This document shows positions 32,338 through 62,201 of a stretch of DNA of 64,000 bases, piece by piece. Positions within the stretch are counted from its first letter, which is position 1. Every line of letters starts with the position of its first letter. A program made the translations under genes and the position numbers. Where the stretch lies: NCBI GenBank assembly GCA_964658305.1, contig OZ210885.1:8494001-8558000 (forward strand), read 5' to 3'. This DNA comes from Leptogorgia sarmentosa (lineage: Eukaryota). The notes beneath the pieces were generated by a model. It was not told the DNA's origin. It ran no database searches and was given only the letters and a program-made list of their open reading frames with translations.

Positions 32338-35219
32338 ATGACCGAACTTAAGGAGAAATTAACGCGAATACGAGCTGTGCGCGGGGGAAATCGAGGTGTT
32401 ATTACCAAGTTGATCAATGAAGCCGAAGCACACTTGGAGGAAGAAATCGTACCACGAGGACCATTGAACACGATCACTGGGTTACTCGAAGAAAAGCTTA
32501 CCTTTGTAAAGGAGTTAGACCAGAGAATAATCGAAATTTGCGAAGTTGACGACATAGTAAATGAAATCGAAGAAGCAGAGGAGTTAGTATCGAGAGTTTT
32601 AGACACTCAACGACATATATTTGAGAAAACGCACAAGGTCGAAGAGGCCCATAACGAAGTACAAGGTGGTCAGAGCCTAGACAATGTGCCGACGATTATT
32701 ACGAACGAGGAACTGGTGCAACAACAACAAAGCGAAGAAACTGTCCCTAGCACGTCGGCTAGCAATAGCAACACAAGTAATAGTCAATCTGTGTCAACAA
32801 GTCAACCCGAGATAGCTGAATCCGCAGGTACAGAAGGTACAGTGAATAATGAGCACAATTCTGTTAATATTAGCAACCATAATGCGCCAGTGTCCACACA
32901 AAACCGATCAAAACTACCAAAGCTTGTTTTACCAAAATTTCGGGGCGAGGTGACTCAATGGAGAACGTTTTGGGACAGTTTTAACAGTGCCATACATACC
33001 AACAGCTATTTAACGAAGATAGACAAATTTAATCATTTAAATTCATTACTGGAGGGACAGGCTTTACGTGCAATTCAAGGACTAACCCTNNNNNNNNNNN
33101 NNNNNNNNNNNNNNNNNNNNNNNNNNNNNNNNNNNNNNNNNNNNNNNNNNNNNNNNNNNNNNNNNNNNNNNNNNNNNNNNNNNNNNNNNGACGGAAAGCA
33201 ACTATGAATCAGCTATCGATATACTAAATCAACGTTTTGGTAAACCGCAGCATGTTATTTCTACACAAATGGACGAACTCCTAAAAATTCCAGCATGCAC
33301 CACTGATAAAACCTCACAACTACGATTTGTTTACGATAAGATTAGCATAAATGTGCGAGGACTAGAAGCACTGAGGGTCAACTCGAGCCAGTATGGTAGT
33401 CTTTTAATACCGGTTGTCATGTCCAAGCTACCACCAGATGTTCGACTTCAGATTGCGAGAAACACTGCACAAGATGTATGGGAAATGTCGGAGCTGTTAG
33501 GTGTTATTAGAAAAGAAGTCGAAGCACGAGAGATAAGTGATGGAATCAAAGTGAATTCTGAAAAACCCAAAGTATCACAACTGAAACCAACATCCCAAGG
33601 TTCTGCTGCTGCATTGGTAGCTAATTCCTCACATTCAGAAAATAAAATTCAATGTGTGTATTGTTCTGGTAATCATTTTTCTGCCTCTTGCATGAAGACC
33701 AGCGAAGCGCAGGCTCGACTAGAAATCCTAAAACGAGATCGAAGATGTTTTGTTTGCCTCAAAAGGGGGCACCGAAGTAATCAGTGTTCTAATCAAAGGG
33801 GTTGTAGACGATGTAATGGTAGGCACCACCAATCTATCTGCAATCGACGTTCGTCAACAATGTTCACGAAACCTGATACAAAAGAGTTAGCAGCCCCATC
33901 GAAAGGAAGTGAAGGTGTTCATTGGTCCCAAACCATTGGGCGACAAATCCAACCTGAAACACCAAACCCTAGTACCCACTCAGTACATGTCCAGAGCACC
34001 ACCACTACCACCAGTGCAAGGGGACAAGTTATGTTACAAACAGCCACTGCCTTAGCAACCAATGAAGATGGATCTAGAACAACCAGAGTAAAAATACTAT
34101 TTGACAGTGGGAGTCAACGCTCCTACATCACTGATAGTTTGAAATCAAGATTGAACATAAAACCCAAGAAAACCGAAACACTGCATCTCAACACATTTGG
34201 TGAACGAAGTTACCGAAAGCAGAAGTGTGAATTGTCGCCATTGTTCCTCCGAACCAATAAAAAGGAAGATGTTAGGATTTCTGCACTCAGCTTTCCGGTT
34301 ATTTGCTCTCCTTTAGCTACAAAAATCGAAGTGGATCAGTACTCCCATTTACAAGGTTTACAACTGGCTGACAGTTCTGACTCTGATGATTCTATTGATG
34401 TCCTTATTGGTTCCGACCATTATTGGGACTTTGTTGAAGGTGATACAATTCGAGGAGAATGGGGGCCTGTAGCAATTGAAAGCAAGTTCGGCTGGCTTCT
34501 CTCTGGACCAACCAACAATGGGTTGTGCAATGAGATATGCACAACAAATCTGGTGATATCGGGTTGCAGCGTCAACCAGTATGAAACAACACAAGATCCA
34601 TTAGTTGATGTATTAAAGAAATTCTGGGAGACAGAATCAATTGGAATCAAAGGAGATCCAGAGTCCAAGGAAATTATCGAATCATTCAACGAGAGCGTGC
34701 ATTTCAACGGAAAACGATATGAAGTTAGCATGGAAGCAAGGTTGCCCTTCAATACCGAGTGACTATCAGTTGTGTGAGAAACGTTTAAGATCTCTACATC
34801 GCAAGTTGTTACACCAGCCAGAGTTACTACGAGAATACGATCAAATTATCCAACAGCAGACACGTGATGGAATTGTAGAAAGAGTTCCAGACGAAGAGAC
34901 CAAAACCACTGATAAAGAATCTGTCCACTATTTACCCCATCATGGAGTTGTACGACGAGATCGCGTGACGACCAAACTTCGCATTGTTTATGATGGGTCA
35001 GCCAAGCCACCAGACCGTGAATATTCATTAAATGATTGTTTAGAGACGGGCCCTAACTATATCCCTCAGTTGTTTGACACGCTTGTCAAATTTAGATGGC
35101 ATAGAATTGGCCTAACTGCAGACATTGAAAAGGCCTTTCTCATGGTTGCAGTTAACGACATGAATAAGGATATGTTACGTTTTCTTTGGCTGAAAGAACC
35201 AAACGATCCGAACTCAGAA
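32338..35219 (+). pseudogene. BEL/Pao gag-pro-pol polyprotein (frameshifted and truncated)
   Basis: KLPKLVLPKFRG...FWDSF gag region; three Cys/His knuckles (CVYC..H..C, CFVC..GH..C, CRRC..HH..C); protease LFDSGSQRSY; RT YLPHHGV, KLRIVYD, LNDCLETGP, ADIEKAFL; frameshift near 34725; coding similarity stops at about 35219. Confidence 0.88.
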
Positions 35220-36150
35220 TTTTATGGAAAAATAAAATAAATATAAATATAAAACGGCAATAAATGATGTGTCCGACCATCAATGAGGTGTCCGACTGTC
35301 TACGGAAAAAAAATTTGCGCCGGCGACCTTTCAGGCAATTAGTAAATATACGCAAAACAAAAGTTCACTGCCGACAACATATTGACGAACTATCCTGTGT
35401 TTCAATCCATGGTCGTTTCGTCCCATTTCTCAGCGTTTTATATTTTCCGAGAAGGCTTTTAAAGTCTTACGCGCAGATCTCGTCTTTGTTTTCCCCTTTC
35501 CAAAGCTTTAAGAAGCTCCTTGAAAGCTTTAAAAAGCTTCGACTCTTCATGATAGTCCATGGTATTTTAGAGATCAGTGATGACCGACGATGCACCATGA
35601 CCGAAAATGGCGGCCAAATCGAGCAACTTTGGACTCCGCTATGTTGCCCTTTACCCGGGTGCAAATAGCCGTGTGGGATTATTACCCTCACCCCGGGCTA
35701 ACGCCCGGACGGCGCTTCGCGCCATGGCTCGGGGATAAACATAATAATAATTTTGAATGGGGGATCAGGCAGCTGGAGCAGTCGGTGTAATGGCAAGGGT
35801 GCGGATTTCCGCGCAGAGCACCCGCGTTCGATCCCAATCGGGGTACAATATTTTTTTCCTTATTTTATTCGACCTTTAATTTCAAACTTTAATTTTGTCA
35901 AAGATTTTTCAATCATATATTTAAAAAATACGCATATAATTTTGCCAATGATTAAAGTTAAGGTTAGGATTAGGGTTTCGGTTTGCGTTAGTGTTAAGCA
36001 CTGTTGAGGCGCTGAATACGAGTGAAAGCGGTGCCGACAATCTCGGAGGTGTCCGACCGTCAACGGACATATAGGTGGCTCATATATATATCGAGAAAGC
36101 GCCGAAGCTATTTTCCCTTTCGTAAACGGTCGTTGCTTTCCGAAACGGTC

Positions 36151-36396
36151 AGTAGTATTATATAGGCCGATCGAGCCCCTTTTTCAGGGTGGTGCAGGGT
36201 GGTACAGGGTGGTGCAGGGTGGTGTAGGGTGGTGCAGGCTGCGTGAGGTGGTGCGAGGCTGCGCAGGGGTGCGCAGGGATGCGCATGCGTATTGAGGCCA
36301 TGAACTCATTAGAATATCGTGTTCTGATTGGTTGAATTTCACAATTCGGATACGTATCGGGATACGTGTCTGATCGTGCCCTGATTGTTTGAACAG
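36151..36396 (+). repeat. Polinton left TIR
   Basis: Reverse complement of 51658-51903; starts AGTAGT; contains 10-bp AGGGTGGTGC-type repeats. Confidence 0.95.
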
Positions 36397-36504
36397 CGTC
36401 TTTACAATTCGGATACGTAACGCCATAGTGGCATAAAACTATATACCTTTACCAGCGAGTCTACATCATTGATTTAGTCCTTACCGCTGGTGATTTGTAT
36501 TAAA

Positions 36505-36576
36505 GCTGTGATAGTATAGTGGTTATTACGATGCGTTGTGGCCGCAAAAACCCAGGTTCGATTCCTGGTCATGGCA
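36505..36576 (+). tRNA. tRNA-His(GTG)-like gene inside the Polinton
   Basis: 72 nt; acceptor stem GCTGTGA/TCATGGC plus discriminator A; A-box TAGTATAGTGG; anticodon arm TGCG-TTGTGGC-CGCA (GTG at 36538-36540); T arm CCAGG-TTCGATT-CCTGG; T6 terminator at 36579-36584. Confidence 0.85.
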
Positions 36577-36925
36577 TCTTTTTTCAGTAATGTATTATAA
36601 TAGCCAATATAATTATAACTTATCCTCGGATACGTATGCGGATACGTATCGGGATACGTGTCTGATCGTGCCCTGATTGTTTGAACAGCGTCTTTACAAT
36701 TCGGATACATGTTCTGATTGTTTGAACAGCGTCTTTACAATTCGGATACGTATGTGGATACGTGTCTTGTCTGATCGTGTCCTGATTTCTTTACAATTCG
36801 GATACGTATCTGGTAATGCTCTGATTGGTCGAACAGCGTAATGTTACGCTACAGCCGCGCTGTGATTGGTTCATGGTTTTGGCCATAAGGCTATATAACT
36901 CCACTGTCAACTCATACCCACATCA

Positions 36926-37684
36926 ATGTTTGGGTTACACTTGGTTTGGTGTCTTTGCTTTAGTCAAAAATCGACAATTTTTCAAGACGCTAGTGAAGGA
37001 TTGGATCGTTTGAAAAAAGCCTTGGAGAACCTAGAAGCTTGTCGTAATACAATGGAATGTTTACACGGTTTACCAGCATCGTCTACAGTGACTCAGAAGG
37101 GAACGTTTTGGTTTTGTGGTCAGAAGCCGAGTTGTGAGTTCTTTTGCCCCGATCAAGATTGCTATATGTTTGGAAAAGCTACGACAGCTTTTCGTGAAAG
37201 TGGTTGCCTTCATCCAAGGTGTTACGGACATGGGCGCTTGGCAAAGATGCGAATGGTTAAAGATACGAATAATCAGAGCTATGGTAGACCATTTTTCGTG
37301 TGTTCTGAAAGAGACAATCCTTGTTCGTTTTGGCAGTGGGGTGATGTTTTTGAAGGTATCAAACCCGTCTGCAACCATAATTTGATATGTCGCACCAAGA
37401 AAGTGAAGAAAGAGGGCCCTAATCAAGATCGTTTATTCTATTGCTGTTCTCATCCGAGAGAGAGTGCTTGTGACTTCTTCGCGTGGAAACCCGACGAAGA
37501 TCCCCTTGAATCGGGTTGTACGTGTTTGTTTAGTATGCCACCGTCCTACCGATATACAGTGCGCAAGAGTGGGGAGACGTTTACAAGCCACGAAACGGAC
37601 CGAAGGAAAGCCTACGAGGAATTTCTTCGCCAAAAGGAAGTTGATGAACTGATTGAGGGATTTTCGAACATGCGGATTAGCTAA
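36926..37684 (+). CDS. Polinton protein with three GRF-type zinc fingers (first ATG at 37052)
   Basis: CLHG...FWFC...CEFF; CYGHG...GRPFFVC...CSFWQW; CNHN...GPNQDRLFYCC...CDFFAW. Confidence 0.8.
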   Translation: MFGLHLVWCLCFSQKSTIFQDASEGLDRLKKALENLEACRNTMECLHGLPASSTVTQKGTFWFCGQKPSCEFFCPDQDCYMFGKATTAFRESGCLHPRCYGHGRLAKMRMVKDTNNQSYGRPFFVCSERDNPCSFWQWGDVFEGIKPVCNHNLICRTKKVKKEGPNQDRLFYCCSHPRESACDFFAWKPDEDPLESGCTCLFSMPPSYRYTVRKSGETFTSHETDRRKAYEEFLRQKEVDELIEGFSNMRIS

Positions 37685-37898
37685 TAATTTGAACAAAACT
37701 GTATCTTTGTATGTATTTAAATAAATATTTTTGTATTTATATCGTGTCATTATGTTGTCGTTGTTCATTTTTAACCTACTTTACCTAGAGTGAACATGTC
37801 ATGTTTAAAGGGTGGATTGCCCTCTATAAAATTTAGACGAATACGTTGCATGTTTGCATGTTGCTCGGGAAAGATTGTGATTCAACAGTCCAACCTTG

Positions 37899-38981
37899 AT
37901 GGCGGAGAAATACCTCCACAACCTGTATTACAATCCCGAAAGTCCGGCAAGTTTTGGCGGTGTGGAGGCTGTTTACCGTGCCGTAAAAGAAGACGGTAAA
38001 TTCCAACTTTCTCGAAATAAAATAAGAACCTGGTTGAAACAACAAGATACATACACTTTACATAAACCAGTCCGATACAGATTTAAGAGAAATAGAGTGA
38101 TTGTTGGGGGTATAGATAAAGAATGGGAAGCTGATTTAGTTATTATGGATTCCCTGAGAAAAGAAAACACTGGTTACAAATATATTTTGACCGTTATTGA
38201 TGTATTTTCTAAGTATGCATGGGCAGAACCCTTGAAGACAAAGTCTGGGGAAAACTTGGTTAAAGCGTTTGAAAAGATATTGAGAAAAGGTCGGAAACCC
38301 GAGAAGTTTCATTCTGACAAGGGGACTGAGTTCACGAATAAACACTTTCAAACATTTCTAAAGAAAAAGAAAATCCTATTTTTCACCACATATAACGAAA
38401 CCAAAGCGTCAGTAGTTGAAAGGTTTAATCGAACGTTGAAAGGGAAAATGTGGAAATATTTCACTGCCAACAACACACTAAAGTATATTGACGTCCTACA
38501 AAAATTAGTGCGTTCCTATAATCATTCGAGACACCGTAGTATTGGGATGCGACCATTTGATGTCAATGTCGAAAACGAAAATATTGTGTGGGAAAGATTA
38601 TATGGTGGTGAGGGAAATAAACGCAGCAAGTACAAGTTTAGTGTTGGCGACCAGGTTCGAATAAGTAAAGCGAGACGAACGTTTAAAAAAGGCTACCTAC
38701 CCAATTGGACTGAAGAAGTGTTTACTATCACAAAGCTGATACCAAGGAAACCCCCTGTGTATAAAATTGCTGATTATCACGGAGATGAATTAGAAGGCAC
38801 GTTTTATGAAGAGGAACTACAAAACGTTATCAAGCGAGATAGTGACTATTATAGAGTGGAGAAAGTTATCAAATCACGCATGCGTAATAAACAGAAGGAG
38901 TATTTTGTCAAATGGTTAGGTTATCCAGATAGTTTTAATTCCTGGATACCGGCTAGCAATGTAAAGAAAACTTCGAAATAA
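37899..38981 (+). CDS. Polinton retroviral-like DDE integrase with C-terminal chromodomain
   Basis: WEADL, YILTVIDVFSKY, SDKGTEF, VERFNRTLK; C-terminal YRVEKVI...YFVKWLGY...NSWIP. Confidence 0.95.
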   Translation: MAEKYLHNLYYNPESPASFGGVEAVYRAVKEDGKFQLSRNKIRTWLKQQDTYTLHKPVRYRFKRNRVIVGGIDKEWEADLVIMDSLRKENTGYKYILTVIDVFSKYAWAEPLKTKSGENLVKAFEKILRKGRKPEKFHSDKGTEFTNKHFQTFLKKKKILFFTTYNETKASVVERFNRTLKGKMWKYFTANNTLKYIDVLQKLVRSYNHSRHRSIGMRPFDVNVENENIVWERLYGGEGNKRSKYKFSVGDQVRISKARRTFKKGYLPNWTEEVFTITKLIPRKPPVYKIADYHGDELEGTFYEEELQNVIKRDSDYYRVEKVIKSRMRNKQKEYFVKWLGYPDSFNSWIPASNVKKTSK

Positions 38982-39050
38982 AAGTTATAATACCAATGAT
39001 TTAACGTGTAAAATATCCCAACAATAATAAGAAAAAAATATATACATGTT

Positions 39051-39761
39051 TTATACACTCGAGTCAGAATATATCGTAGTACTTGATCCTGAAGATGAAC
39101 TCGTGGTGAAGTTCATCGATATAATTTCGTCAGTATTCTGATGTCGATCTCGCCAACAGCAACACAAAAAACGCTTTAGTCTTATAATAGTATATAATAG
39201 TACCAGAGTGAAGACGAATGTTGATAGGGATATCGCTATTTCTCGGGATCTGTTGTGTGTTTGGGATTTGATATTATTTGGGTGGTGAGTAGTGGTGTAG
39301 AATAACTGATCAGATGAAGGTTTCTTGTGGTATGGAGTTGAGGGTGAAGTTTTGTAGCTACGATGAGTGGGCATTGTCGAAGAATCTGCGCGTGTTGATA
39401 ATTGTGGTGTATGAACGGATGTTGGCGTCGAATAGCAGTCACTTTTGATTTCAACCTTCTTCGATGTTTTTATTTTACCGCATACTTGTGGATTCTGACG
39501 CAGGTCGATCACATTGAGGTTCTTGTATGCCGAGATGGTTTCATCGTCGACCCACGTTATGTTGTTCCCTCTAAGATCCAAGGTTACGACCACCTCGTGT
39601 TCATCGATTAACGGAACCTTTTCGAGAGAACACCCCACACAATCCAATAGTCGGATACTTTTAATATATTTACAGCAACTGTGACTGCCAGAAACTTTGT
39701 TTAAAAATAAAATAAAAAGTAAAATGCTGAGAAATTCTATTGAATGCATCTTTCTGTTCAC
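39051..39761 (-). CDS. LRR-containing type I membrane protein (Polinton accessory gene)
   Basis: Signal peptide FLSILLFILFL; Cys cap; LRRs TLDLRGNNITWV and VIDLRQNP; S/T/P-rich stalk; TM IAISLSTFVFTLVLLYTII; CCC; Ser-rich tail. Confidence 0.75.
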   Translation of the reverse strand: MNRKMHSIEFLSILLFILFLNKVSGSHSCCKYIKSIRLLDCVGCSLEKVPLIDEHEVVVTLDLRGNNITWVDDETISAYKNLNVIDLRQNPQVCGKIKTSKKVEIKSDCYSTPTSVHTPQLSTRADSSTMPTHRSYKTSPSTPYHKKPSSDQLFYTTTHHPNNIKSQTHNRSREIAISLSTFVFTLVLLYTIIRLKRFLCCCWRDRHQNTDEIISMNFTTSSSSGSSTTIYSDSSV

Positions 39762-39898
39762 GACGCGAGAAACACCTTATAGCACAAAGTGTCAAATATC
39801 AAAAGCACGCGTACTCTCATACCGCCGGGGGATTTCAGATCAAACTTATAAGATCCATGACTCAACGTGTTGTATTCATTTGTCACTTACTCACCGCC

Positions 39899-40654
39899 AT
39901 GGCTAGTCAGTTTTATCTTACTTTACCATCAAACAGTTCAATGGAATATTTTCCAGGCAATACTCTGACAAATTTTAAAACTAAACTTGCACAACCCATT
40001 GAACTAACAGGGGATTGGGAGGTGGCTCTTTCTGAATTCCAGTACCCTCGTAGCTGGTATAATTTACGCGATTTTGATAATCATATCTACTACGATAGCG
40101 GTGGAGATGATATCTATTCGACAAGTGTTATCCCCCATGGGTACTATCCAACCATCAAAGAGTTTGTTGTGGCTGTAAATAAAACGTTAAAGACAGACGC
40201 GCATGGAGATATTTGGCTAACATACAATAAAATAACCCGCAAAATCACGGTACATGTAAAAAATAAGGCAAAGTTGGCTTTAGCTGGCCGCTTTGCGAAT
40301 ATGATTGGATTTGAGAAGAAAGAGGTAGTTATAACGAAGAAAACAGAAGCTCCATTACCCGTCGATTTAGAAGCTGGATTTCACGCCATGTATTTGTACA
40401 CAGATATCGTTGAACCACAGTTAGTAGGGGATACTAAAGTTTCCTTGTTGAAAGTTATCAAATGTACGGGGGAGTTTGCCGAAAATATAAATGTTAGTTT
40501 TCCAAATCTTCAATACGTTCCAGTGAATGTAAAGTCATTTGAGACCGTTGAAATAGATATAAAGGATGACACACAGGAAAAAGTGCCATTTGAGTTTGGG
40601 AAGGTGATCGTGACACTTCATTTCAGACAGAGAAGATCTCCTCTATTTATATAA
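39899..40654 (+). CDS. Polinton minor capsid protein (penton)
   Basis: FYLTLPSNSS...NTLTNFKTKL..PIEL.G.WEVAL, YLYTDIVEPQLVGD...LL, VTLHFR; ATG in good context at 39899. Confidence 0.88.
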   Translation: MASQFYLTLPSNSSMEYFPGNTLTNFKTKLAQPIELTGDWEVALSEFQYPRSWYNLRDFDNHIYYDSGGDDIYSTSVIPHGYYPTIKEFVVAVNKTLKTDAHGDIWLTYNKITRKITVHVKNKAKLALAGRFANMIGFEKKEVVITKKTEAPLPVDLEAGFHAMYLYTDIVEPQLVGDTKVSLLKVIKCTGEFAENINVSFPNLQYVPVNVKSFETVEIDIKDDTQEKVPFEFGKVIVTLHFRQRRSPLFI

Positions 40655-40656
40655 CC

Positions 40657-41151
40657 ATGAGACATACATTTATACCTGACGCGAACGATTGCAAAATGTT
40701 TTACTTGAAAAATCAGAATGGTGGGACCCTTTCCGGTTTCCATGGGGCTAGAATACAGCGGGGGTATGGACTTGGTAGTTTTTTCAAGAGTATTGCTCGT
40801 GTTGCCATACCTTTGGTGAAGAAGGGTGTAAACGCAATTGGTAAAAAGGCAATAGAAACCGCTGTAAATGTTGGTCAAGACGTACTAGCAGGGAAACGTT
40901 TAAAACAAGCAGTGACAAGCAGAGGGCGACAAGCTGTGAGCGATTTAGCTAAACAGGGCGTGAATAATGTCAAAAACCAACTTGGGGGCGGTTCTAAGAG
41001 GAAGCGAGCAAATCGGTCAGGTCCTTTAAGAACTGGTTCTCAAAGGAAAGTTGTCATTTCTACTCAAGCTAGTAAACGGAGAACATCACCACTTGATACA
41101 CAAGAGAATATTTTTGCTAGTCCACCTACTAAGAAATGGCGCAAGCGATAA
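40657..41151 (+). CDS. Polinton basic core / putative membrane-active virion protein
   Basis: QRGYGLGSFFKSIARVAIPLVKKG amphipathic helix; Q-x-G-x-G putative protease sites; K/R-rich; lies between the capsid genes. Confidence 0.7.
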   Translation: MRHTFIPDANDCKMFYLKNQNGGTLSGFHGARIQRGYGLGSFFKSIARVAIPLVKKGVNAIGKKAIETAVNVGQDVLAGKRLKQAVTSRGRQAVSDLAKQGVNNVKNQLGGGSKRKRANRSGPLRTGSQRKVVISTQASKRRTSPLDTQENIFASPPTKKWRKR

Positions 41152-42482
41152 ATACCCTACATAAAGATTCATGCGGCTGCGGAAAATCAGAACTCGAATT
41201 ATTTACAGTACCACCTACACAGATTGAAATGAACAAAGGTTTTTGGGAAAGTGTTGATCCTGTTTCAAGCGTTCAAACCTCTGACACTATTGAATTTCTT
41301 TGTGCTGCTAACCCCGACGTCTACACAGACCTGGCGAATAGCTACCTTCACGTGAAAGCGAAAATAACAAGGGCGAATGGTGCTAACCTAGAGGTTGACG
41401 AACAAGTAGGGCCCGTGAACCTGTGGTTGCACGCAATGTTTTCTCAAGTTGAAGTTTTCTTGAACAATAAACTTGTTACACCATCAAGCACGGCGTATCC
41501 CTACAGAGCGTACTTAGAAACCGTATTAAATTTCAGTAAAGACGCCAAATCATCTCAGCTAACGTCCGCGTTGTTTTACAAGGACAAAGCCGGGAAAATG
41601 GACTCTGTGAATCCTATGGCAGATGACGATAATGTGAATACCGGACTAAAAGATCGCTATAACCATTCGAAGGAAAGCAAAATGGTTTCCATGGAGGGAA
41701 GAATTCACTCTGACCTTTTTGCCCAAGAACGTTACATTTTAGGTGGGGTTCCTATTAAGCTCAAACTTGTGCGATCAAGTGCTGCGTTTTCGCTGGTGTC
41801 TTCAGTTGATCCACCTGCCTACAAAGTCGTGATAGAAGATTGTGTCTTCCGTGTGCGCAGAGTCAATGTTTCTTCTACCGTCATGATTGGTCATACAGAA
41901 GTCCTGAAACATACCACGGCAAAGTATCCCATCAACAGAGTCGAATGCAAAGTGTTTTCCGCTCCGAGAGGAAACTATTCTGGAAATCAACCCAATATCT
42001 TTCAGGGACAATTGCCTGATAGAATTGTCATCGGCATGGTTGATTCCACGGCTTTCAATGGTTCCTTCAGGAAAAATCCGTTTAATTTTAAAAACTACGA
42101 TATGACCTATCTTGGACTAACCGTAAATGGGGAGCATTTGCCTAGCAAACCACTTCAGATGAAATTTGGTGTCGAACAAGGGGCCAACTACGTATCGGCG
42201 TTTCAAACATTGTATGCTGGTGCGAATAAGCTGTTTCAGAACGAAGGTAATGGCATCTCGCGCGACGAGTACCCTAATGGTTACACATTGTTCGTGTTTG
42301 ATCTGACAGCCGATCTTTGTTCAAGAGATCATCTACAACCTATTAAAAACGGCAACGTCTCACTGGAAGTTCAGTTTGGTACAGCTCTTAACTGGGCTAT
42401 AAATATCGTGGTGCTCGGAGAGTTTCAAAACCTTATTGAAATCGACGCTAACCGCAACGTGCTGTGTGATTTTAACAGTTAG
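41136..42482 (+). CDS. Polinton major capsid protein (double jelly-roll)
   Basis: 448 aa; KSELELFTVPPTQ, YPYRAYLET, P.RIVIGMV...AFNG...NPFNF, GYTLFVFDLT. Confidence 0.92.
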   Translation: MAQAINTLHKDSCGCGKSELELFTVPPTQIEMNKGFWESVDPVSSVQTSDTIEFLCAANPDVYTDLANSYLHVKAKITRANGANLEVDEQVGPVNLWLHAMFSQVEVFLNNKLVTPSSTAYPYRAYLETVLNFSKDAKSSQLTSALFYKDKAGKMDSVNPMADDDNVNTGLKDRYNHSKESKMVSMEGRIHSDLFAQERYILGGVPIKLKLVRSSAAFSLVSSVDPPAYKVVIEDCVFRVRRVNVSSTVMIGHTEVLKHTTAKYPINRVECKVFSAPRGNYSGNQPNIFQGQLPDRIVIGMVDSTAFNGSFRKNPFNFKNYDMTYLGLTVNGEHLPSKPLQMKFGVEQGANYVSAFQTLYAGANKLFQNEGNGISRDEYPNGYTLFVFDLTADLCSRDHLQPIKNGNVSLEVQFGTALNWAINIVVLGEFQNLIEIDANRNVLCDFNS

Positions 42483-42483
42483 A

Positions 42484-42948
42484 ATGAACACTCTACAGAT
42501 TCTAAACGTGCTTCAAAGTGATTCGTTTACCAAGTCAGTGTTTACGAGTGTGGTCCCTTCGGATCGTCTACCGGATACTATATCAGAAAAGCCCAGGGGA
42601 TTTGTTGTGAATGTCGATACTAGTGATGGTCCTGGCTCGCACTGGGTAGCTATTTACCTGACAGCTGATGGAAAAGGGGAATTTATGGATTCTTACGGAC
42701 AAAAACCTAGCTACTACAGCGAGAACTTTAAAACATTTTTAGAAGATAATAGCAGTACTTTTATTTATAATAAGTTAACTTTACAGTCAGCATGGTCTAA
42801 TGTGTGTGGGCAGTATTGCCTGTTTTATGCACTCCATAGATGTAGAAATATACCAATGTCAACTATTACTAATATGTTTACGAATGATAAGGAATGGAAC
42901 GATATGCTTGTAAGGGATTTTATATGTAAATGGTTTTTTGTGCAATAA
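42484..42948 (+). CDS. Polinton cysteine maturation protease (adenain/Ulp1-like)
   Basis: GSHWVAIY, DSYG, LQ...CGQYC catalytic motifs; ATG at 42484. Confidence 0.93.
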   Translation: MNTLQILNVLQSDSFTKSVFTSVVPSDRLPDTISEKPRGFVVNVDTSDGPGSHWVAIYLTADGKGEFMDSYGQKPSYYSENFKTFLEDNSSTFIYNKLTLQSAWSNVCGQYCLFYALHRCRNIPMSTITNMFTNDKEWNDMLVRDFICKWFFVQ

Positions 42949-43013
42949 ATGTATTCAACAAACGATTTTTGGTTCTATGTTTTTTATTTATTTCAAACAA
43001 TCATACATTTTTT

Positions 43014-43745
43014 CTATCTAAACCATTTGTATGGTCGACTATTCAATTGAACTCGTTGCTTCTTTGCCGCAGCTCTAGTTCGTGACAAAGGTGGTTTAGA
43101 TGGGGGTTCTTCTTCGAGTTCATGCATTGCCCCAGTTTTAAAATCTCTGATTGTCTTTAAACGATTCTCGTTCCTAACAATTCCCTCAGGAACATTGACA
43201 TCGCTCAGTACTTTTGCAAAGAGTCTCCAGCCGTGAGGATTGAAATTCTTTCTGTGACGTAGCGCATCGTTCACAAGATCTATCACGTTACTCCCCACCA
43301 CAGGTTTTCCCTCGTAGATTATCTGGCCTTTGTCGTCCCATGTAATCAAATCTTTATTTTCTTTCAATTTTTTAACCAGTTGTCGGGCTCGAGATTTCAT
43401 CGTAGGAGGAACACTTTCCATAATATCAGCTTCAACATTGTTAGGTAAATCTACGCTGTCTTCTGGTTGTGTTTCAGGCTTGTCGTCAGTTGGTTTAGGG
43501 GGTACGACGCTTACTCGAACTGGCTGACTCATTCTTTTATCATAATAGTTCAAGTAGCGTTGGAGTATTTGGTTGTACAGTGTAGCTTTCTCATCATCAG
43601 TAACGTCTTGTCTTCTAAGTAAACTATTCATTTCCCCATCTAAATTATTCACTTGCGAGGTCAAAGGCGGAACTAGTGGTTTTCTTTCTGTTGTATTCTC
43701 TGCCAAATGTTCTGGCACAAGGACTAAGCGTTTAACGTGTTCCAT
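43014..43745 (-). CDS. Polinton conserved protein of unknown function
   Basis: 243-aa intact ORF with W...G.I...G..V.GSNVIDLV motif; ATG overlaps upstream stop (TAATG). Confidence 0.7.
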   Translation of the reverse strand: MEHVKRLVLVPEHLAENTTERKPLVPPLTSQVNNLDGEMNSLLRRQDVTDDEKATLYNQILQRYLNYYDKRMSQPVRVSVVPPKPTDDKPETQPEDSVDLPNNVEADIMESVPPTMKSRARQLVKKLKENKDLITWDDKGQIIYEGKPVVGSNVIDLVNDALRHRKNFNPHGWRLFAKVLSDVNVPEGIVRNENRLKTIRDFKTGAMHELEEEPPSKPPLSRTRAAAKKQRVQLNSRPYKWFR

Positions 43746-44074
43746 TACTTAATCAAAAGACTGGCTAATTGTTCAACTATCGGTGTAAGGATCAGAGGTA
43801 GAAAACCTTCTCCCTTTTGTAAAAGCAATTTTCTTCGTTTATTCAAAGGATTTCGCTTGTCGGCAACAAAACGTAATTTCTCTTTGACTGGAACAAGTCG
43901 CTTCAAAACACGTGGACTAACTTTAATTGTTTTCAAATAAACATTCAAACAACACTCCGTCAACGCCTCCAGCAGATCGTTGTGCGCGACCTTAAGTATA
44001 GCCTTTCGTTGAGTGGGAGTGCACTTTCGTAAAACTCTTAAAAAGTCGGAGTTCCTTCTGATACGAGCTGACAT
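43745..44074 (-). CDS. Polinton small basic protein with QKGEGFL motif
   Basis: 109 aa, K/R-rich; C-terminal Q-x-G-x-G site followed by a hydrophobic helix. Confidence 0.7.
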   Translation of the reverse strand: MSARIRRNSDFLRVLRKCTPTQRKAILKVAHNDLLEALTECCLNVYLKTIKVSPRVLKRLVPVKEKLRFVADKRNPLNKRRKLLLQKGEGFLPLILTPIVEQLASLLIK

Positions 44075-44110
44075 GACTAAATGAAGTTCAGTGCATTGAG
44101 GTGACTGTTT

Positions 44111-44782
44111 TTACGTTCGTGGTACATAAACGTAATGTTTATCGGTCGGGAATATGCCTGAGCGCAAGCGTGTTTCATCCGGACACGTGGGTGTTAAGTC
44201 GATAAATAAATATGAAAACGGTTCTGCTGTAGCCATTTGATACGCTTGCTGAAAAAACTTCACATTTTGGGGGTAAATCTGCTTAGCTAAATGAATAACT
44301 TGGCTCGCATCTCTCACATTCTTTGTTAGCACAATGTAACTCGCGTTTAATGAAATTGTACGATGATCTTTACTCTGATGAAATAAGTTTTGGACAATGT
44401 AAATCACGCTGAGATTACCATGATGAGATTTTTTAGTAAACAATTTTGCTATTACTGCATCCCTCTCACCCATCATATCATCAAATATATAAAGATTTCG
44501 CGTTTTTGGGTTGATACTATCAAATATTGCATCTGGTACACCTTCAATAAACTCCATCTGCGGGACTAATGATTTTATCTCGGCAAATGTATCTTGATAC
44601 TCAGAATAAAAATATTTTATGTTCTCTGGTGGTGGATCAATCATCACTTGAAAGTGACTTAGCAATTTCTTAACAAATGTTGTTTTGCCGGTTTTTGTGC
44701 CTCCTGAGACAAGGAGACCAAAAGGATGTGTTAATTGTAACGAATACATCGGTAAACTGAGTGAACTGAGTTCACATCGCAT
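44111..44782 (-). CDS. Polinton A32/FtsK-like packaging ATPase
   Basis: Walker A GGTKTGKT, Walker B YIFDDM, SHHGNLSVIYIVQNLF, RTISLNASY. Confidence 0.93.
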   Translation of the reverse strand: MRCELSSLSLPMYSLQLTHPFGLLVSGGTKTGKTTFVKKLLSHFQVMIDPPPENIKYFYSEYQDTFAEIKSLVPQMEFIEGVPDAIFDSINPKTRNLYIFDDMMGERDAVIAKLFTKKSHHGNLSVIYIVQNLFHQSKDHRTISLNASYIVLTKNVRDASQVIHLAKQIYPQNVKFFQQAYQMATAEPFSYLFIDLTPTCPDETRLRSGIFPTDKHYVYVPRT

Positions 44783-44976
44783 TATTTATACTTTTTCATA
44801 CCACCTCGTAATATCATTAGCTCTTTCAGGATGCGATCTAAAGGTAGTATTTTCGCTTGATTCAAATACAGTTTTCTATCTTTAATTGATAGATGATGAT
44901 AATCAGCTAAGTGGTTGGAAAGTTTTAGCAAACCCTGTTTCCCACATAGCGGACAGTCTTTACGCAAACGTGGCAT
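44782..44976 (-). CDS. Small C2H2-type zinc-finger protein
   Basis: MPRLRKDCPLCG...LSNHLADYH; stop overlaps ATPase ATG (TAATG). Confidence 0.6.
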   Translation of the reverse strand: MPRLRKDCPLCGKQGLLKLSNHLADYHHLSIKDRKLYLNQAKILPLDRILKELMILRGGMKKYK

Positions 44977-45024
44977 GATGTAAACTAAACTTAACAAACC
45001 ACAACATGAAAACTAAATAGGAGA

Positions 45025-45230
45025 AAAGTCCCGTGGAGGGACAAATCGTGTCCCGCGAGTCCCGTAAGGCAATATTAGATTTTGTAAAAGTCCCGTGGAG
45101 GGACACAAAGTCCCGTGGAGGGACAAATCGTGTCCCGCGAGTCCCGTAAGGCAATATTAGATTTTGTAAAAGTCCCGTGGAGGGACACAAAGTCCCGTGG
45201 AGGGACAAATTAAGTCCCGCGAGTCCCGTT
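45025..45230. repeat. 82-bp-period tandem repeat with GTCCC-GTGGA-GGGAC hairpins
   Basis: GTCCCGTGGAGGGAC at 45028, 45090, 45110, 45172, 45192; GTCCCGCGAGTCCCGT at 45050, 45132, 45214. Confidence 0.9.
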
Positions 45231-45385
45231 TCAGCAAAACTAACCCATACACACCGTAGGGTCTCAAATTAATTTATATAATGCACATATAAGTTTTTCT
45301 CAAAATGGATTGTTATTTGAATAGTCATACACACATATTAGGTCTAGGAAGATATATTTATACAAACTATACTATTTACAAAATC

Positions 45386-48300
45386 CTAAATATCTAAAGG
45401 AACGGTTGTTACACCGTCCTCCAAAACTTTACGTTTTGGATAAAAATAACTAAAAGCGTTTTTAACTTGAACATATGTGCACATCTTATTATTTAAAACC
45501 CTAAATCCCCTATTTACACCCGACCCACTACGTTTACTCAAAATGACATCTAAATATTTATCCTTATTAATTACATTATTTCTCTTATTTACACCTTTAC
45601 AACTAAATTTATCTTTCCCATCCCCAAAACAGTAATATGTTTTGCTACAAAGACTAATACATCCATCCCCTTCCCACTCAACTTTAAATAAACCAGGCGT
45701 TCTCTTATCATATTTTGCATGCTCTACCGTGTCCGTTCGAGGAAACCAGTTACATTTATCGTTCTCAAACTCACACATATTTTCAGGTTTTATCAAATCT
45801 TCTAGACGTTCCCCGCTAATGGCAATATATGCACTGTCGGTATCCATTTCGCAATATTCGAAATCCGACCTATCTAAATATTTATCTAAAAAATCATAAT
45901 AAAATTGTAACATACGTAATTTGGCGTATTGGTAAACGAAGAATCCAACTTGAAGAGGCAAGTCCAGTTTAATTTTTTTCTTGCTGCTTTCCACCTCGTA
46001 CGTGTTGTCGTCGATAGCGTTCAATTCACGGAAAAATGGCGAGTTGATTAAGCTTGACACTTCGTCGTCGTCGCAAAATTTCACTTGACGATGTCGCTCT
46101 TTGTTCGTGATAGTTTTCCCATATGACGAATTCCCAACGAGTTTCATCGTATCTGCGATTATTGCTTTGGCAGGGTCAGCATCTCCAGCACGACGGGCAT
46201 TCGATACTGCGTCACCAAAGGGTTTGAAACATGGTTTAGGTGTATATTCTATCACCTGATAGACGCGTGTTACCTATAAAAAACAAAAATGACATTAGTA
46301 ATGAAACCTATGCTTATTAACCTATACGTAATACGTACCTCTAAACCATGTTGCAAATACCACTTTAAGAGAGGTGTGGCCAACAAAATTTTTTCACCGA
46401 CCATACTTCCAATGAGACTTCTGCGAGGTCGACGCATGATGTCGTTTTCTTCGGCGTAGGCTTTCATAAAGTCGCCTATATCGTCTCGAGATATCTCGGT
46501 GTTTTTGAATATAGGACACATTTCGGAAAATTGTTCACGTAAATGTTCTGGAACGTGGATGTCACACTCTACGCACCCAAATAACTTCTCATCTCTCACA
46601 GCATCGAGAATGGACTGTAGTGTCATTGTCTTCACCTTGTCTAATGGTCGTCGTAGTCGAGTAGCGATAAATCGTTGTAATTCTCTGTTCGTCTTTTTTC
46701 TCTCACGCCATTCACATTCCCAGCACTCGACAAGATTGAAACCTTGCTTGCGGATATACGAGCTGTTTCTCCGTGTCTCTTCGAGCAAGTCTTTCATGGG
46801 TTTGTCCCGCGTCGTGTTGGTGTCTTTGCCCTGGTTTAAGTGGCAATCATGGCCATGCCAATAACAACCTAATACGAAAAAAGAGAAAGTTAGCACATTT
46901 GACATGGTATCTTTAATCGATGTTTCCCATAAACGAACTTACCGTGAAATTGAAACACCGTTTGTGTTTCGGAACAGAATCCGTCCACTGGAAGGCGACG
47001 AGCTCCAATTCTCTTCTCTGTATTGTTATTTTGGTGTCTAATTTTAACACCACGTTGGTAAGCTTGCCATTCCAACCACTCTACAGCCATTTTACCACTC
47101 CATTGCTTCTTAAAGTTGTCGCCTTCCAGTCGACGAGTATACTGCCCCGTTGGCATATCTTGCATGATCGCCCAAAGGTATAAAGCATTCGCATCGTAAC
47201 CGACCACTTTCTTGCAGGGTTTGGGTTTTAAGTTCTTTCTTCTCATTTCTACGTTGCGTATATTTGTCTTGTCTTTTTCGTGGTATCTGTTGAATATAAT
47301 ACTAGGACCACCAACGTTATTATCTTTCATGGTATAGTACAAATCTTTGTCTTTTTCAGTAAATAGTGAGAAGTATATATCGGGAACATTGGAAAATAAA
47401 TATTTCATCGTCAAACCTGGCACGCTTACACCGTCCTTAAAAATATCGATATTTCGTTCTTTCCAAAACTGGCTCATTTTTTCAATAGCTTCGAGAAAGG
47501 GAACAACATCAAGATTATTATACCACACCAAAAAGTCTCGAAAAGTTCCCATACCATGATCGTTCCACACGCTTTGACAATAGCTGTACTGTTCGTTGGT
47601 GATGTCGGTGTTGGAAAGTGTTGAATGAAACGCCTCGTGAGGTGGTAAGGTGGGGAAATTTAACTTATCAAGGGAGTCGACCCATTCGTATGGAAAATAT
47701 CCTTTGGTCTGCGTGCACTCGTAGGCTTTGAGGAACTGTTCGTAGGAAAATCCAGGAGCCAAGTAGTTTGTAATGTCGAGAAACTTCAAGTGTGAGGTCT
47801 TCAGACACATGTGATTGTTGTTTCGCTTTATCACAAACTGGACTTCCTCATGTTTCACTAGGTGAGCAAAGAAGGGGTTTTTGGCAGCATTGATGTCGTA
47901 CTTGCCTGAGTTGAATCCGAGGACGGGCAGCTCCATGAGGTAGCGTTCCAACTTTTCCCGAAGTTTCTCGAGAGGGTGGGTCTTTTTATTTTCATCCTAA
48001 AAGATAAGAATGGATTAAATTGTATGTTGAAGCTGAAAATTTTGAAACCAGTGAAAATCATACATACCTCATTTGCCTCGTCCTCATTTGCTTGACTATT
48101 GTCATCTTCACTCTCCTGAAAAAAATAGAAAACAATAATAAGACTACGTATTGCAAAGAGCAAGTTGACCAACAAAATCGTATATACCTCGTTCAATGAC
48201 AGTATACACTGCACCATCTCTTCCATATCACCGCTTTCAGTACACACCTAAACACAATATAGTCATAAGTACAAGTCTCAAATTTAGTCATTCAAATGCA

Positions 48301-50668
48301 CAACTTACCTCATTGTTTCCCATTCGCTGATTGATTCGTTCAAATACATCGGAAAAGTGGTCCAACAGCAATGTGTAACTCTCTTGGCTGATTTGGACCA
48401 AATAGTCAATGAATTGTTTGATCATCTCTCTGGTATTGCCAGAGGACACAAAACACTTTGGTTGATCATAACCAGGGACGTTGGAGCACACAGAGACACT
48501 CAATGGGACATGTTCAGCTTCCCATGTAAGCTTTGCTGTGTTTCTAGGGTGGTCGTCTTCTTTCTGAAAATAACATTCAAAGTCGAATGTTGCCCGATAC
48601 GGAAAGTACTTCAAGTCTTCGGGGATCACAACACCTTCGTCTTCGAGCAAATCGAATATCGTTTGTGGGATTTTGTAAACGCCACCAGGGAACACGTGTC
48701 GGACAGTCGCTTCGCATCTTTTCTCGTGCTGATTTAATGCTTTTGCTGTTTTCCACAGCTTGTCACATTTAGAACAACAGTATGATTTTGAATACATACT
48801 TATATTCTTTATATAGCTGAAATGATTTCCATAGAGGTTGAGATATAGGCTGTTTGTGAAAGTGCGATGAGATCTCTGAATCAGTTGCGCAACGATCTTG
48901 GTATTCTCAGTATCTTCGTCCTCACATTCCACGAGTCGATACACGTAAATGTTCACTTCAAATAACTTTTCCAAGTCGGGAAGTTCTTCAAGGGTCACAC
49001 CATCGAAATCTTCGCCATCTTCAACGTACCGTTCAAAATAGTGTTGTGTGTCGCGTTCCAGATTGTGGGAGTGACATCCACGGTGTAGAGCCAAACAACG
49101 GAAAAAACACAGTTTGTCCTCGTACGGTAAACCAGTTTTCTTACTACAGTCTAGGGAAACAACAGCAGGATTTTCTAACACGTATTTGGGTAAACGAGTG
49201 CTACGTCCAATGGGATGATCGCGAAGTTTTGTCACGTAGAATGTGGCGTTAGGGATATCCGCAACCACCCACTTGGAATTGGGACGTTGTTGGCGAGCCC
49301 ATTCAAAAACATCCAGATTTTCTAGCGCTGACCGAATTTGTTCCAAATCCTCACGACTGCGAACCAAAAACGGTGCTTCGAATACCCGGTTGTTATTGGC
49401 TGACGAATGGTGGTACTGCATCTGCTCCGTGTCGTTGTTAAATAGTACGAAACCAAACGACAAATTCAGTTTGAAAACGGTCGTTTGGTCTTGGAATATG
49501 CGTTCAACATCCTGCACAAGTTCAGCCATATTCAAGGAGCTTAGGCGATAATTATACCAGTCCTGAACTCGATTGCCACGACTTTGTCTAGTCCGGATGG
49601 TGCGCCAGTTTTCTCGATGAAGTGTCGAAGGAAGGTCGGGTGGTGGGTAGAATGGATCTTGAGGAAACTGATTCGGTGGAATGGTAACCGTTGTCTCTAC
49701 CAAAACAAAGAATTATTTTTCAGACACACGGCTTAACTTTATAAATTTCCTATAAGAAAAACGAATATTTCAATAGTGTCAACACACAATTTTTACACCA
49801 ACCTTCGTTTACTCGAGCTCGTTTTGTCTGGGTCGATGTACCGTCGGTTGCCTTGCGTTTAAGACCACTAACTCGCCCGCTCGATTTCCCTACAGAGAAA
49901 AACGTTTACAATTCGATAAATTGTTTCAACGATATTATTGACTCTTTTTTACTTACCTTGGTTTACTCGGGTTGTTGCTGTCCTCTTCCGTTTCCCACCA
50001 CCAACCTGATGCACATTTCGTTGATGCGCTTGTAGCGGGAATATATTTCGAAACACCTCACCACAAATATCACACGTATATTCACGTTCCGCTCCTCGTC
50101 GCTCATGCATCTTTAGATGGTCGTTGAGCTTGTCCTTGAAAATAGAAAATAATACACGTTAGCAAAATTCAAATGAAAATTTATGTGAACAAATCTGTAA
50201 CCGGATCATACCTTTCGACTAAATTTCTTGTGGCATTTGTGGCACTCGAAGGTTTTTTCTTGATGGACTTTCTCATGGCGCTTTAATACATCGACTGTGG
50301 TGAAACTCTTATCACAGGTCTCGCAAGTAAACAACTTCTCCCCAGTATGTACACGCTTGATATGGCGCTTCAAGGTGCTAGCGCGTGTAAATTCTCGACC
50401 ACATTGATCACAAACATAACCAGACCTGGCTGGCTCTTCCCAGTCGTTCCATTCGACAAGAACTTGCTGTTGGGTTTCAGGCGACCAAGACTCGAACATG
50501 TCGTCCACCGCTAACGCGCACAGTTGTCGATTTAGTTCTTCATTCTCAAGATCTCCCATAAATTGATCTCTCCTAAAGTAAAAAACCATACTCTTAATAC
50601 TGCTAAAACCAAAACCAAATACAGTGCATTAGAACTTACCAGATACTTTCTTGATGTTGTTTGGCCAT
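45386..50668 (-). CDS. Protein-primed family B DNA polymerase with N-terminal C2H2 zinc fingers; 10 exons, about 1540 aa
   Basis: Exons 50668-50640, 50572-50212, 50134-49957, 49889-49803, 49696-48309, 48247-48188, 48115-48068, 47996-46943, 46868-46339, 46273-45386 join in frame (4623 nt). Exo FDFE, FNSGKYD, YNNLDV; Pol YDANALY, KLVGNSSYG, DTDS. Confidence 0.92.
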
Positions 50669-51079
50669 ATCTCAAAATAAATTTCTCGAAAGGAATAGCT
50701 GTGTTGCCGGTTGACAGGTAAAGACTGATGTATACTCGGTGGTAAAGTTCAGATAAAGACTGATGTATACTCGGTGGTAAAGGTATATAGTTTTATGCCG
50801 TAACGTAACGCTGTTGGACCAATCAGAACACGATCAGACACGTATCCGGATACGTATCCACATACGTATCCGAATTGTAAAGACGCTGTTCAAACAATCA
50901 GAACACGTATCCGAATTGTAAAGACGCTGTTCGTCCAATCAGAACACGATCAGACACGTATCCCGATACGTATCCGAATTGTGAAATTCAACCAATCAGA
51001 ACACGATATTCCCACAACGTAAACTTTCCTACACGGTACTATAAATACATTCCAAAAACCAAAAAATATCCATTACAGC

Positions 51080-51568
51080 ATGGACAACATAACAGCCATC
51101 ATCGATATGGACGGTTTTACCGTCGAAAAAAGATTTTATTGTAAGGAGCTGGCCATGATCAAGAAGAATAGCACCTATGCCACATCCATACTCTTCGACC
51201 TCGGCTTGAAATGGAACCAGCTGAATGAAAAAGACAAAAAATCAGCGCGTTACCTGGAGAAGCACATCCACAAAATTCGTTTCAACTCCCCATCAACCGT
51301 CCCACTATCCAACCTACCTGAAATCGTTAAAAATTATTTCAGCGAGCCAAACACCTTGGTAGGTTACAAAGGAGGACATTTTGAAAAAGACCTCCTGGAT
51401 CAACTGGGAATTCCGTTTGTAAATCTGGAACACTTCGGATGCCCCAAAGCCGAACAGCTGTTTCAGAAACTTGGATGGTTGGAGACGTGTGGACATCACC
51501 TCACCCCCGACGCATACCACCATTGCTCGAAAGTCGAGGTCGAAGCGTTTGCGATGTGGTTGTGGTAA
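51080..51568 (+). CDS. DEDDh-like 3'-5' exonuclease with putative E-C-H-C zinc site
   Basis: IIDMDGF (D9, D11), KELA (E23), KGGHFEKDLL (E102), CGHH (C137, H140), HCSKVE (H148, C149, E153); TATAAA at about 51039 and CCAAT boxes upstream. Confidence 0.65.
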   Translation: MDNITAIIDMDGFTVEKRFYCKELAMIKKNSTYATSILFDLGLKWNQLNEKDKKSARYLEKHIHKIRFNSPSTVPLSNLPEIVKNYFSEPNTLVGYKGGHFEKDLLDQLGIPFVNLEHFGCPKAEQLFQKLGWLETCGHHLTPDAYHHCSKVEVEAFAMWLW

Positions 51569-51657
51569 AAACAAACAAACAAAAACGGTTCTTTTAAGAA
51601 CCACCAAATCTCATAAAAGAATAAAAACGGTTAACTCGATCAAATTTTGGTACGTCA

Positions 51658-51903
51658 CTGTTCAAACAATCAGGGCACGATCAGACACGTATCCCGATAC
51701 GTATCCGAATTGTGAAATTCAACCAATCAGAACACGATATTCTAATGAGTTCATGGCCTCAATACGCATGCGCATCCCTGCGCACCCCTGCGCAGCCTCG
51801 CACCACCTCACGCAGCCTGCACCACCCTACACCACCCTGCACCACCCTGTACCACCCTGCACCACCCTGAAAAAGGGGCTCGATCGGCCTATATAATACT
51901 ACT
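51658..51903 (-). repeat. Polinton right TIR
   Basis: Reverse complement of 36151-36396; ends ACTACT, followed by TSD ACGGTC. Confidence 0.95.
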
Positions 51904-61800: not shown

Positions 61801-62142
61801 TCAGTAAGAAGCGTCTACTTTCACCCACAATCATTCAATTACCACCAAACGACAAAGCATAAAACTCAGAGCTCCGTCCCAGATATAATTAAAGGAATGT
61901 GGTTTTGTCTCTACAACAAGTTCTTCGAAGTATCCTCCGGACGAATTCCACTTGAGCTGCCAATAAGGAGTACAAATGAAGGTAGAAAGAAAGTGCCATT
62001 GAGGTTAATTGCCATTGTTGAAAAAGGTGAACAGAAAGTAAAGGAGAAAATGAAAGCGAAGCTCCATGAATGCTTTCCATTGTTCCGGTTAGCATCACCG
62101 GAATCTATTCTAGAGGATGAGGAGGAAGAAGTAGTGACATGA
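55827..62142 (+). CDS. Academ-like transposase with inserted ankyrin repeats; 8 exons, about 1249 aa
   Basis: Exons 55827-55869, 56167-56214, 56337-56477, 56785-57010, 57509-58210, 58309-58595, 59314-61218, 61745-62142 join in frame (3750 nt). Motifs LLMDNIN, IVGDVGT, PGDMH, NY..E, N.SG..G.N...DEYVE; ANK RTIFHYAV and GATPLSIAV. Confidence 0.72.
57075..57316. mobile_element. MITE inside transposase intron 4
   Basis: Imperfect TIRs GTTGTTCAAA...GGTTAGCTTAACC / GGTTAGCGCTAACC...TTTGAACAAC. Confidence 0.55.
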
Positions 62143-62201
62143 ACAATGCTTTTTTATAACACAACAGTGCAGCTGAAAAACCACAGTTAAATAGTTATGC
62201 A

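Follow-up and report, generated by a model that had tools for sequence, protein, structure and literature searches.

The locus considered here raises the question of how a histidine tRNA gene came to lie near the left end of a Polinton, and whether it is kept there as a working tRNA. Over the window, i.e., the whole 64-kb stretch of Leptogorgia sarmentosa DNA that was analysed, ARAGORN called a single gene, tRNA-His(gtg), at 36505-36576 on the plus strand, and Rfam RF00005 matched it with 58.4 bits (E 4.9e-10; gathering threshold 29). Both results confirmed a sequence-only reading of this DNA, which had described a 72-nt cloverleaf with a GTG anticodon, A and B boxes and a T6 run. The same reading had set the gene inside a TSD-delimited element and, indeed, TIRs and a 6-bp TSD were found around it. 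The element spans 36151-51903 (15,753 bp) and is flanked on both sides by the hexamer ACGGTC (36145-36150 and 51904-51909). Its 257-bp TIRs, at 36151-36407 (plus strand, with an AGTAGT end) and 51647-51903 (minus strand), are 98% identical, and their outermost 246 bp are identical. Long AG...CT TIRs, the 6-bp TSD, an rve integrase and a protein-primed DNA polymerase B (pPolB) place the element among the Polintons. In contigs from sequencing runs (designated X1, X4, X6 and X8), loose ends behind 36150 looked like the right flank, as at an empty site (14 contigs in X8, 10 in X4 and 8 in X6, judged by eye).

The protein genes of the element begin, on the plus strand, with a GRF zinc-finger gene (36926-37684; PF06839, E 4.6e-19), an rve integrase with a chromodomain (37899-38981; PF00665, PF00385) and a putative major capsid protein (41136-42482). 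On the minus strand are a putative packaging ATPase (44111-44782; Pox_A32 E 9.5e-5, under the curated cut-off) and a pPolB region of several ORFs (45386-50589; PF03175 on 46890-47936), which is probably spliced. The closest named homologues of integrase and capsid are octocoral proteins: the integrase matches a Paramuricea clavata protein at 77%, and the capsid matches P. clavata and Dendronephthya gigantea proteins at 70-71%, so that an octocoral host is likely; integrases of this Polinton clade are 74-94% identical. Pfam matched none of the ORFs labelled capsid, penton and protease, but homologues of these ORFs co-occur with integrase in many loci; the labels are putative, the 'F54H12.2-like' label of the homologues presumably denoting capsid in the case of 41136-42482. 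Several further features were seen in and around the element. A C2H2 zinc-finger ORF (50206-50589, minus strand; PF00096) at the far end of the polymerase region is probably an early exon of a spliced pPolB gene. A small membrane protein seems to be encoded by a 232-aa accessory ORF (39051-39749, minus strand), which has a signal-peptide-like start, a weak LRR_8 match (E 2.5e-4), a stalk rich in Ser/Thr/Pro and a hydrophobic segment. Downstream of the gene nearest the right end (51080-51626, plus strand; 162 aa, no Pfam match) come a histone 3' stem-loop (Rfam RF00032, 37.3 bits; gathering threshold 34), a purine-rich stretch and AATAAA; the histone-type hairpin was absent from the Polinton loci among 132 loci scanned by pattern. 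Outside the element, broken gag-like ORFs with DUF1759/DUF1758 matches at 32338-35240 (plus strand, containing a run of N) are presumably of a BEL/Pao-type retrotransposon, and a DUF6589/ankyrin ORF with a RecQ-like helicase ORF at 57603-63818 is likely another large mobile element.

The tRNA gene starts 354 bp from the tip of the element and 98 bp past the inner end of the TIR, so that it lies outside the TIR itself. It is flanked by two 73-bp direct repeats, at 36344-36416 and 36636-36708 (both plus strand, 98.6% identical), of which further copies occur at the right end. Between the first repeat and the gene, a block with a TATA (36440) and an initiator-like sequence (36430-36475, plus strand) points at the tRNA; 40 of its 46 bases are the same as in a minus-strand block at the right end (TATA at 50789), upstream of the polymerase region, and it therefore appears to be a copy of the putative pPolB promoter, for which we infer a possible Pol II role. 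The gene itself sits in a 157-bp segment (36469-36625, plus strand) that, in blastn against the element, matched only itself and is likely a captured fragment. Most simply, this arrangement can be read as the DNA-level capture of a host tRNA gene, together with short flanks, by the repeat-rich end, where it came to lie behind a duplicated promoter. The T6 run, the missing CCA and the missing poly(A) tail argue against retroposition. An A/B-box-like, tRNA-like stretch with a T run at 35776-35850 (plus strand), outside the left TSD and below the ARAGORN and Rfam thresholds, is probably the head of a host SINE.

The gene has the features of a eukaryotic cytosolic tRNA-His gene: a cloverleaf, a GUG anticodon (36538-36540), an A box (36512-36522) and a B box (36555-36565) with their conserved positions present, A73, and a T6 run (36579-36584, predicted Pol III terminator) 3 nt past its end. 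All 28 conserved tRNA and His-identity positions on a checklist compiled from general tRNA rules agree with expectation, and 19 of 21 cloverleaf pairs form, the exceptions being A27:A43 and U13:U22. Two G:U pairs (3:70 and 4:69) occur in the acceptor stem and the T stem pairs fully; these features and the A:A at the top of the anticodon stem are as previously described, while the U:U had been overlooked. CpG decay was rejected as a general cause of the G:U pairs (CpG o/e of the element, 1.07). The base preceding the gene is A, and neither G-1 nor CCA is encoded, which together with A73 is the eukaryotic pattern; in eukaryotic tRNA-His, Thg1 is reported to add G-1 opposite A73 (PMC9508852, PMC4338351). 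From its sequence, the gene looks more like an ordinary eukaryotic tRNA-His than a VA-type RNA.

On this basis, we tentatively favour, as the best of the readings although at something short of an even chance, that a captured host gene is kept as a predicted working tRNA. A host DNA fragment with tRNA-His would have been captured into the repeat-rich left end; transcription by the host's TFIIIC and Pol III would run from the internal A and B boxes to the T6 run; RNase P and Z, the CCA enzyme and Thg1 (adding G-1 opposite A73) would mature the transcript; and HisRS would charge it. When the element is at high copy number, its own tRNA would supplement the pool of His-tRNA where this is limiting or being destroyed. 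The reading is favoured because the anticodon loop, acceptor ends and terminator are kept and because a second Polinton locus, L049 (see below), keeps diverse, well-paired tRNAs. Against it stand the two mismatches and two acceptor G:U pairs, and the cloverleaf (-17.4 kcal/mol) lies above the minimum free energy structure (-25.1 kcal/mol), as is likewise the case for the tRNA-His of L049.

Whether the gene belongs to the element was addressed with other copies. Parts of the window were contained in 20 of 24 listed runs, none of them recorded as RNA, and ten of these contained half or more of its words; runs of organisms C, D and E and unlabelled runs had shares of 0.04-0.06. Contigs were aligned to the window for X1, X4, X6 and X8. 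Contigs bridging the tRNA and the element flank, i.e., with at least 31 letters on both sides of a junction, were present in three of these four runs (X1, X4 and X6), from two studies and under two organism labels. In X1, which may be the source sample, both junctions were bridged with zero differences; in X4 each was bridged, on separate contigs; in X6 the 3' junction was bridged; and in X8 there was no bridging piece among those listed. Since bridging contigs occur in several runs, the gene is not private to the window copy; the sequence-only reading had named presence in this copy alone as a point that would refute it. Its other alternative, that the gene is the head of an abundant host tRNA-derived SINE inserted in the element, is largely refuted and, in our estimate, very improbable. 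The summed depth of tRNA-His-like contigs, which is high in X4, X6 and X8, would fit such a SINE, but a complete acceptor stem is followed directly by T6, no body, tail or second tRNA-His copy was found in the 64 kb, and alignments of other copies break off at the borders of the tRNA, with loose ends that, by eye, resemble element flanks. The bridged junctions, the lack of SINE features and the L049 tRNAs at the same position support the earlier view that the tRNA belongs to the element.

The same contigs provide a measure of divergence. Long element contigs differ from the window at 3 of 1377 bases (X4) and 3 of 1057 bases (X6), and with the 246 identical TIR bases these few differences indicate that the window copy is young. 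Another X4 contig, however, differs from the window tRNA-His at 7 of 69 tRNA bases, a gap that predates this insertion in view of the low divergence of the element. If all 7 changes are assumed to have arisen neutrally in the element lineage, the sparing of 27 conserved sites has P = 0.025, in favour of a working tRNA; for 4 changes, P = 0.13. Among the differences listed, 1 falls in the 72-nt tRNA and 5 in 145 nt of unique flank, although these are small numbers. In the X4 contig at the 3' junction, a change at 36565 breaks T-stem pair 52:62, and 5 other letters and 7 gaps occur in 92 bases. Behind 36577, X8 has a loose end that agrees with 36584-36609 at ~22 of 26 letters, contains an insertion of 4 letters and apparently lacks the T run; in loose ends of X8 and X4 before 36504, blocks of 9 and 4 bases are shared with the window leader (all by eye). 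These diverged ends could stem from the host gene that served as donor or from a sister subfamily that has diverged. The broken T-stem pair and the T6 run apparently missing from the X8 ends both weigh against a working tRNA. Summed contig depth over the tRNA was 526.7 in X4, 585.6 in X6 and 18,848 in X8, compared with 20.3, 25.7 and 1,117 over element ORFs, a ratio of ~17-26 that is not a copy number. Because tRNA depth is far above ORF depth, tRNA-His-like copies already seem to be numerous in the host, and a plentiful host tRNA-His is a further point against a need for the element's own. X1 showed no extra tRNA-His depth. One X1 contig (depth 2.8) at 37329-37515 carries 32 other letters, and the 21 places listed are all A>G; this resembles ADAR hyper-editing as seen in RNA libraries, but the run is not recorded as RNA and a contig of such low depth may be an error.

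Searches for relatives yielded 135 loci, 55 with three or more core genes, of which 15, some of them redundant, are 10 kb or longer. Alignment scans returned at least 80, 8 and 44 loci, with none above 60% identity among the matches listed; scans with capsid, L049 capsid and ATPase added only L133-L135, and one integrase query against viral contigs gave no match. At the default ARAGORN threshold, tRNAs were found in only one of the 15 long loci, L049, and were absent from both long loci that show both TIRs (L002 and L133). A relaxed setting (ps85) gave noise on many loci and was excluded from the counts, and two tRNA-Ser of L131 were rejected because that contig is bacterial and its integrase match has only E 2e-4. 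The integrase of L049 is 47% identical to that of the window, and the locus has integrase and PolB matches and a GRF finger under the cut-off (E 6.4e-4). We took its left end to be an AGTAGT motif at 5428, where, by eye, a LINE-endonuclease-like reading stops. A cluster of tRNA-Leu(UAA), a gene with a UGA anticodon, tRNA-Trp(CCA) and tRNA-His(GUG) lies 730-1290 bp inside that end; the four score 60.5-65.8 bits, compared with 33.9 for a tRNA-like piece outside the element, and each is followed by a T4-T6 run. The order of end, tRNAs, GRF gene and integrase is common to L049 and the window, with an additional ORF in between. Within the cluster, the gene with the UGA (Ser) anticodon (6388-6459) lacks the long Ser arm; its body has a short variable loop and shares 79% identity over 76 nt with tRNA-Trp(CCA) next to it, so that its anticodon appears to have switched after a duplication. 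At the relaxed threshold only, a decayed fifth tRNA-like gene was seen (6270-6342, minus strand), and elsewhere in L049 two tandem penton-like genes occur at 10987-13106, with a 300-nt repeat at 72%.

The tRNA-His genes of the window and L049 are identical at 54 of 72 positions, with no similarity in their flanks. All 21 pairs form in the L049 gene, and its T stem consists of the same five pairs as that of the window, a stem that is presumably that of insect tRNA-His as well. The T stem therefore gives no sign of virus-specific covariation, and the argument that the sequence-only reading built on it fails. Differences between the two genes cluster at positions 9, 13, 22, 26, 27 and 43-45. Double-sided changes were not accepted as proof of viral selection, as they may reflect the genes of two hosts. 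An integrase tree was built from the window, 24 chosen loci and 13 of 120 homologues (38 rows). In it, eight database proteins form a group with the window (100/98), and L049 pairs with L057 on a backbone that does not resolve. Independent capture in the window lineage and in L049 is likely; shared ancestry of the tRNAs with losses is the less favoured alternative. The rarity of the cargo (1 of 15 long loci, and neither of the two with both TIRs) weighs against a working tRNA.

The gene could also be a neutral passenger, i.e., a host tRNA fragment captured at a recombination-prone end and drifting in one subfamily. The non-compensated changes (two G:U and one A:A), the T-stem-breaking change in one X4 contig, the homologous copies apparently without T6, and the absence of the tRNA from the two loci with both TIRs are all consistent with drift. 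So is codon usage: His makes up 2.65% of 3,964 element codons, compared with 3.09% of 2,396 codons in six flanking ORFs, and is not above homologues in integrase (1.94% vs 1.96%) or capsid (2.01% vs 2.50%). His codon demand was therefore rejected as an explanation, and since His has one anticodon, any gain would be one of dosage, which would count solely under amplification of the element or depletion of the host's tRNA-His. However, none of the 28 conserved positions has been lost, although the gene differs from another tRNA-His at up to 7 bases, L049 has well-paired, diverged tRNAs at the matching position, and the few differences listed fall mainly in unique flank rather than in the tRNA. 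On balance we regard a passenger as rather unlikely, and a working tRNA as the better reading.

A role at the DNA level was also considered, in which the A and B boxes would recruit TFIIIC and Pol III and keep the end open, or stop silencing from reaching the GRF and integrase promoters, with the RNA a by-product. In both the window and L049 the tRNAs sit between the TIR and the first genes, perfect boxes stand beside imperfect stems in the window, and TFIIIC sites are reported to act as chromatin boundaries in yeast (PMC3395662). Boxes alone would suffice for such a role, yet the anticodon loop, G1:C72 and A73 are kept; L049 carries several anticodons with paired stems, and ARAGORN found no tRNA at the right end of the window element. 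We consider this unlikely, a little more so than neutral drift.

In another alternative, the product could be a non-translating Pol III RNA that titrates an RNA sensor or nuclease, in the manner of a VA RNA or TMER decoy, or a tRNA cut from a Pol II transcript started at the TATA block 65 bp upstream. Adenovirus VA RNAs have a Pol III type-2 promoter near the genome end and are long, non-cloverleaf RNAs. The block that copies the putative pPolB promoter is directed into the tRNA; the positions that differ from the L049 tRNA-His cluster in the way described above; and the TMERs of MHV68 are reported to be Pol III tRNA-like genes at the viral genome's left terminus that are not aminoacylated (PMC4337559). 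The hallmark of those RNAs, an extended structured Pol III RNA or 3' miRNA hairpins, was not found here: with T6 directly after the tRNA, transcription would end before any 3' hairpin extension, neither the 124 nt downstream (z -0.74) nor the leader-containing form (z -1.16) folds better than shuffled sequences, and no VA-type Rfam match occurs in 30000-56000 at E up to 5. His identity elements are, moreover, intact, and a decoy seems to us distinctly improbable.

A broader extension of the working-tRNA reading, which we offer as speculation and think more doubtful still than a decoy, is that animal Polintons keep a terminal Pol III slot that repeatedly captures host tRNAs, that His recurs because invertebrates cut tRNA-His as an antiviral measure, and that the changes in the D and anticodon hinge would be adaptive rather than signs of decay. 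It draws upon the recurrence of His, which is seen in the window, in L049 and, among cryptophyte PLVs, in 8 of 10 tRNAs called by ARAGORN (PMC12220804). Human RNase L is reported to cut tRNA-His, -Pro and -Gln preferentially (PMC12170186), and phage tRNAs to evade tRNA-targeting defences (PMC11555353). If true, it would represent a eukaryotic parallel of phage anti-nuclease tRNAs; and if the benefit of the gene were to offset cleavage of tRNAs, an antiviral nuclease not yet described in invertebrates would be implied.

Comparison with known systems places the element among animal Polintons/Mavericks, i.e., the adintoviruses (PMC8502044), coral polintoviruses (PMC11131425) and vertebrate Mavericks (PMC8097293), with which it shares TIRs, a 6-bp TSD, integrase and pPolB and, by putative assignment, capsid and ATPase. 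The term 'tRNA' occurs 0 times in the main texts of PMC11131425, PMC8097293 and bioRxiv 10.64898/2026.06.19.733378 and once in that of PMC8502044, in a figure legend in a section on non-animal hosts; literature searches, mostly of papers outside subscription, returned no report of tRNA cargo in animal Polintons. Like MHV68 TMERs, the gene has a type-2 Pol III promoter and lies close to one end of the genome of an animal dsDNA virus, but TMERs, as described in PMC4337559, are uncharged and carry miRNA hairpins, whereas the window gene stops at T6 after a full tRNA-His with its identity elements intact. Virophages share occasional tRNA cargo, being reported in 18 high-quality genomes plus 12 others, and all seven complete tRNA-carrying virophages have an integrase; however, they are a different virus class, and the anticodons given comprise Met, Gln, Leu, Pro, Cys, Phe and ochre but not His (PMC6905037). 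Closest in cargo are protist PLVs, for which 558 tRNAs are reported among 8,300 PLV/virophage genomes and codon compensation and countering of tRNA depletion are raised as ideas (PMC12220804); the 8 of 10 cryptophyte ARAGORN hits that are tRNA-His are a precedent for the working-tRNA reading. The earlier statement that the standard Polinton gene set lacks tRNAs stands for the core set, but protist PLVs are reported to carry tRNAs, His among them (PMC12220804). Like them, the window has a tRNA gene inside an integrated Polinton-type element; unlike the rows of the PLV table (PMC12220804), which are of protists, algae and oomycetes, the element here is an animal-type Polinton with an rve integrase, pPolB, exact borders and sister copies. 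In phages, giant viruses and protist PLVs, tRNAs are familiar. A bounded, multi-copy example in an animal Polinton, with the four-tRNA site of L049, suggests a recurrent non-coding cargo missed by protein-centred annotation and raises the question of whether endogenous animal viruses add to the host tRNA pool. As judged from sequence, the element-borne tRNA-His would add an animal case to a class of cargo that relatives in protists are known to carry.
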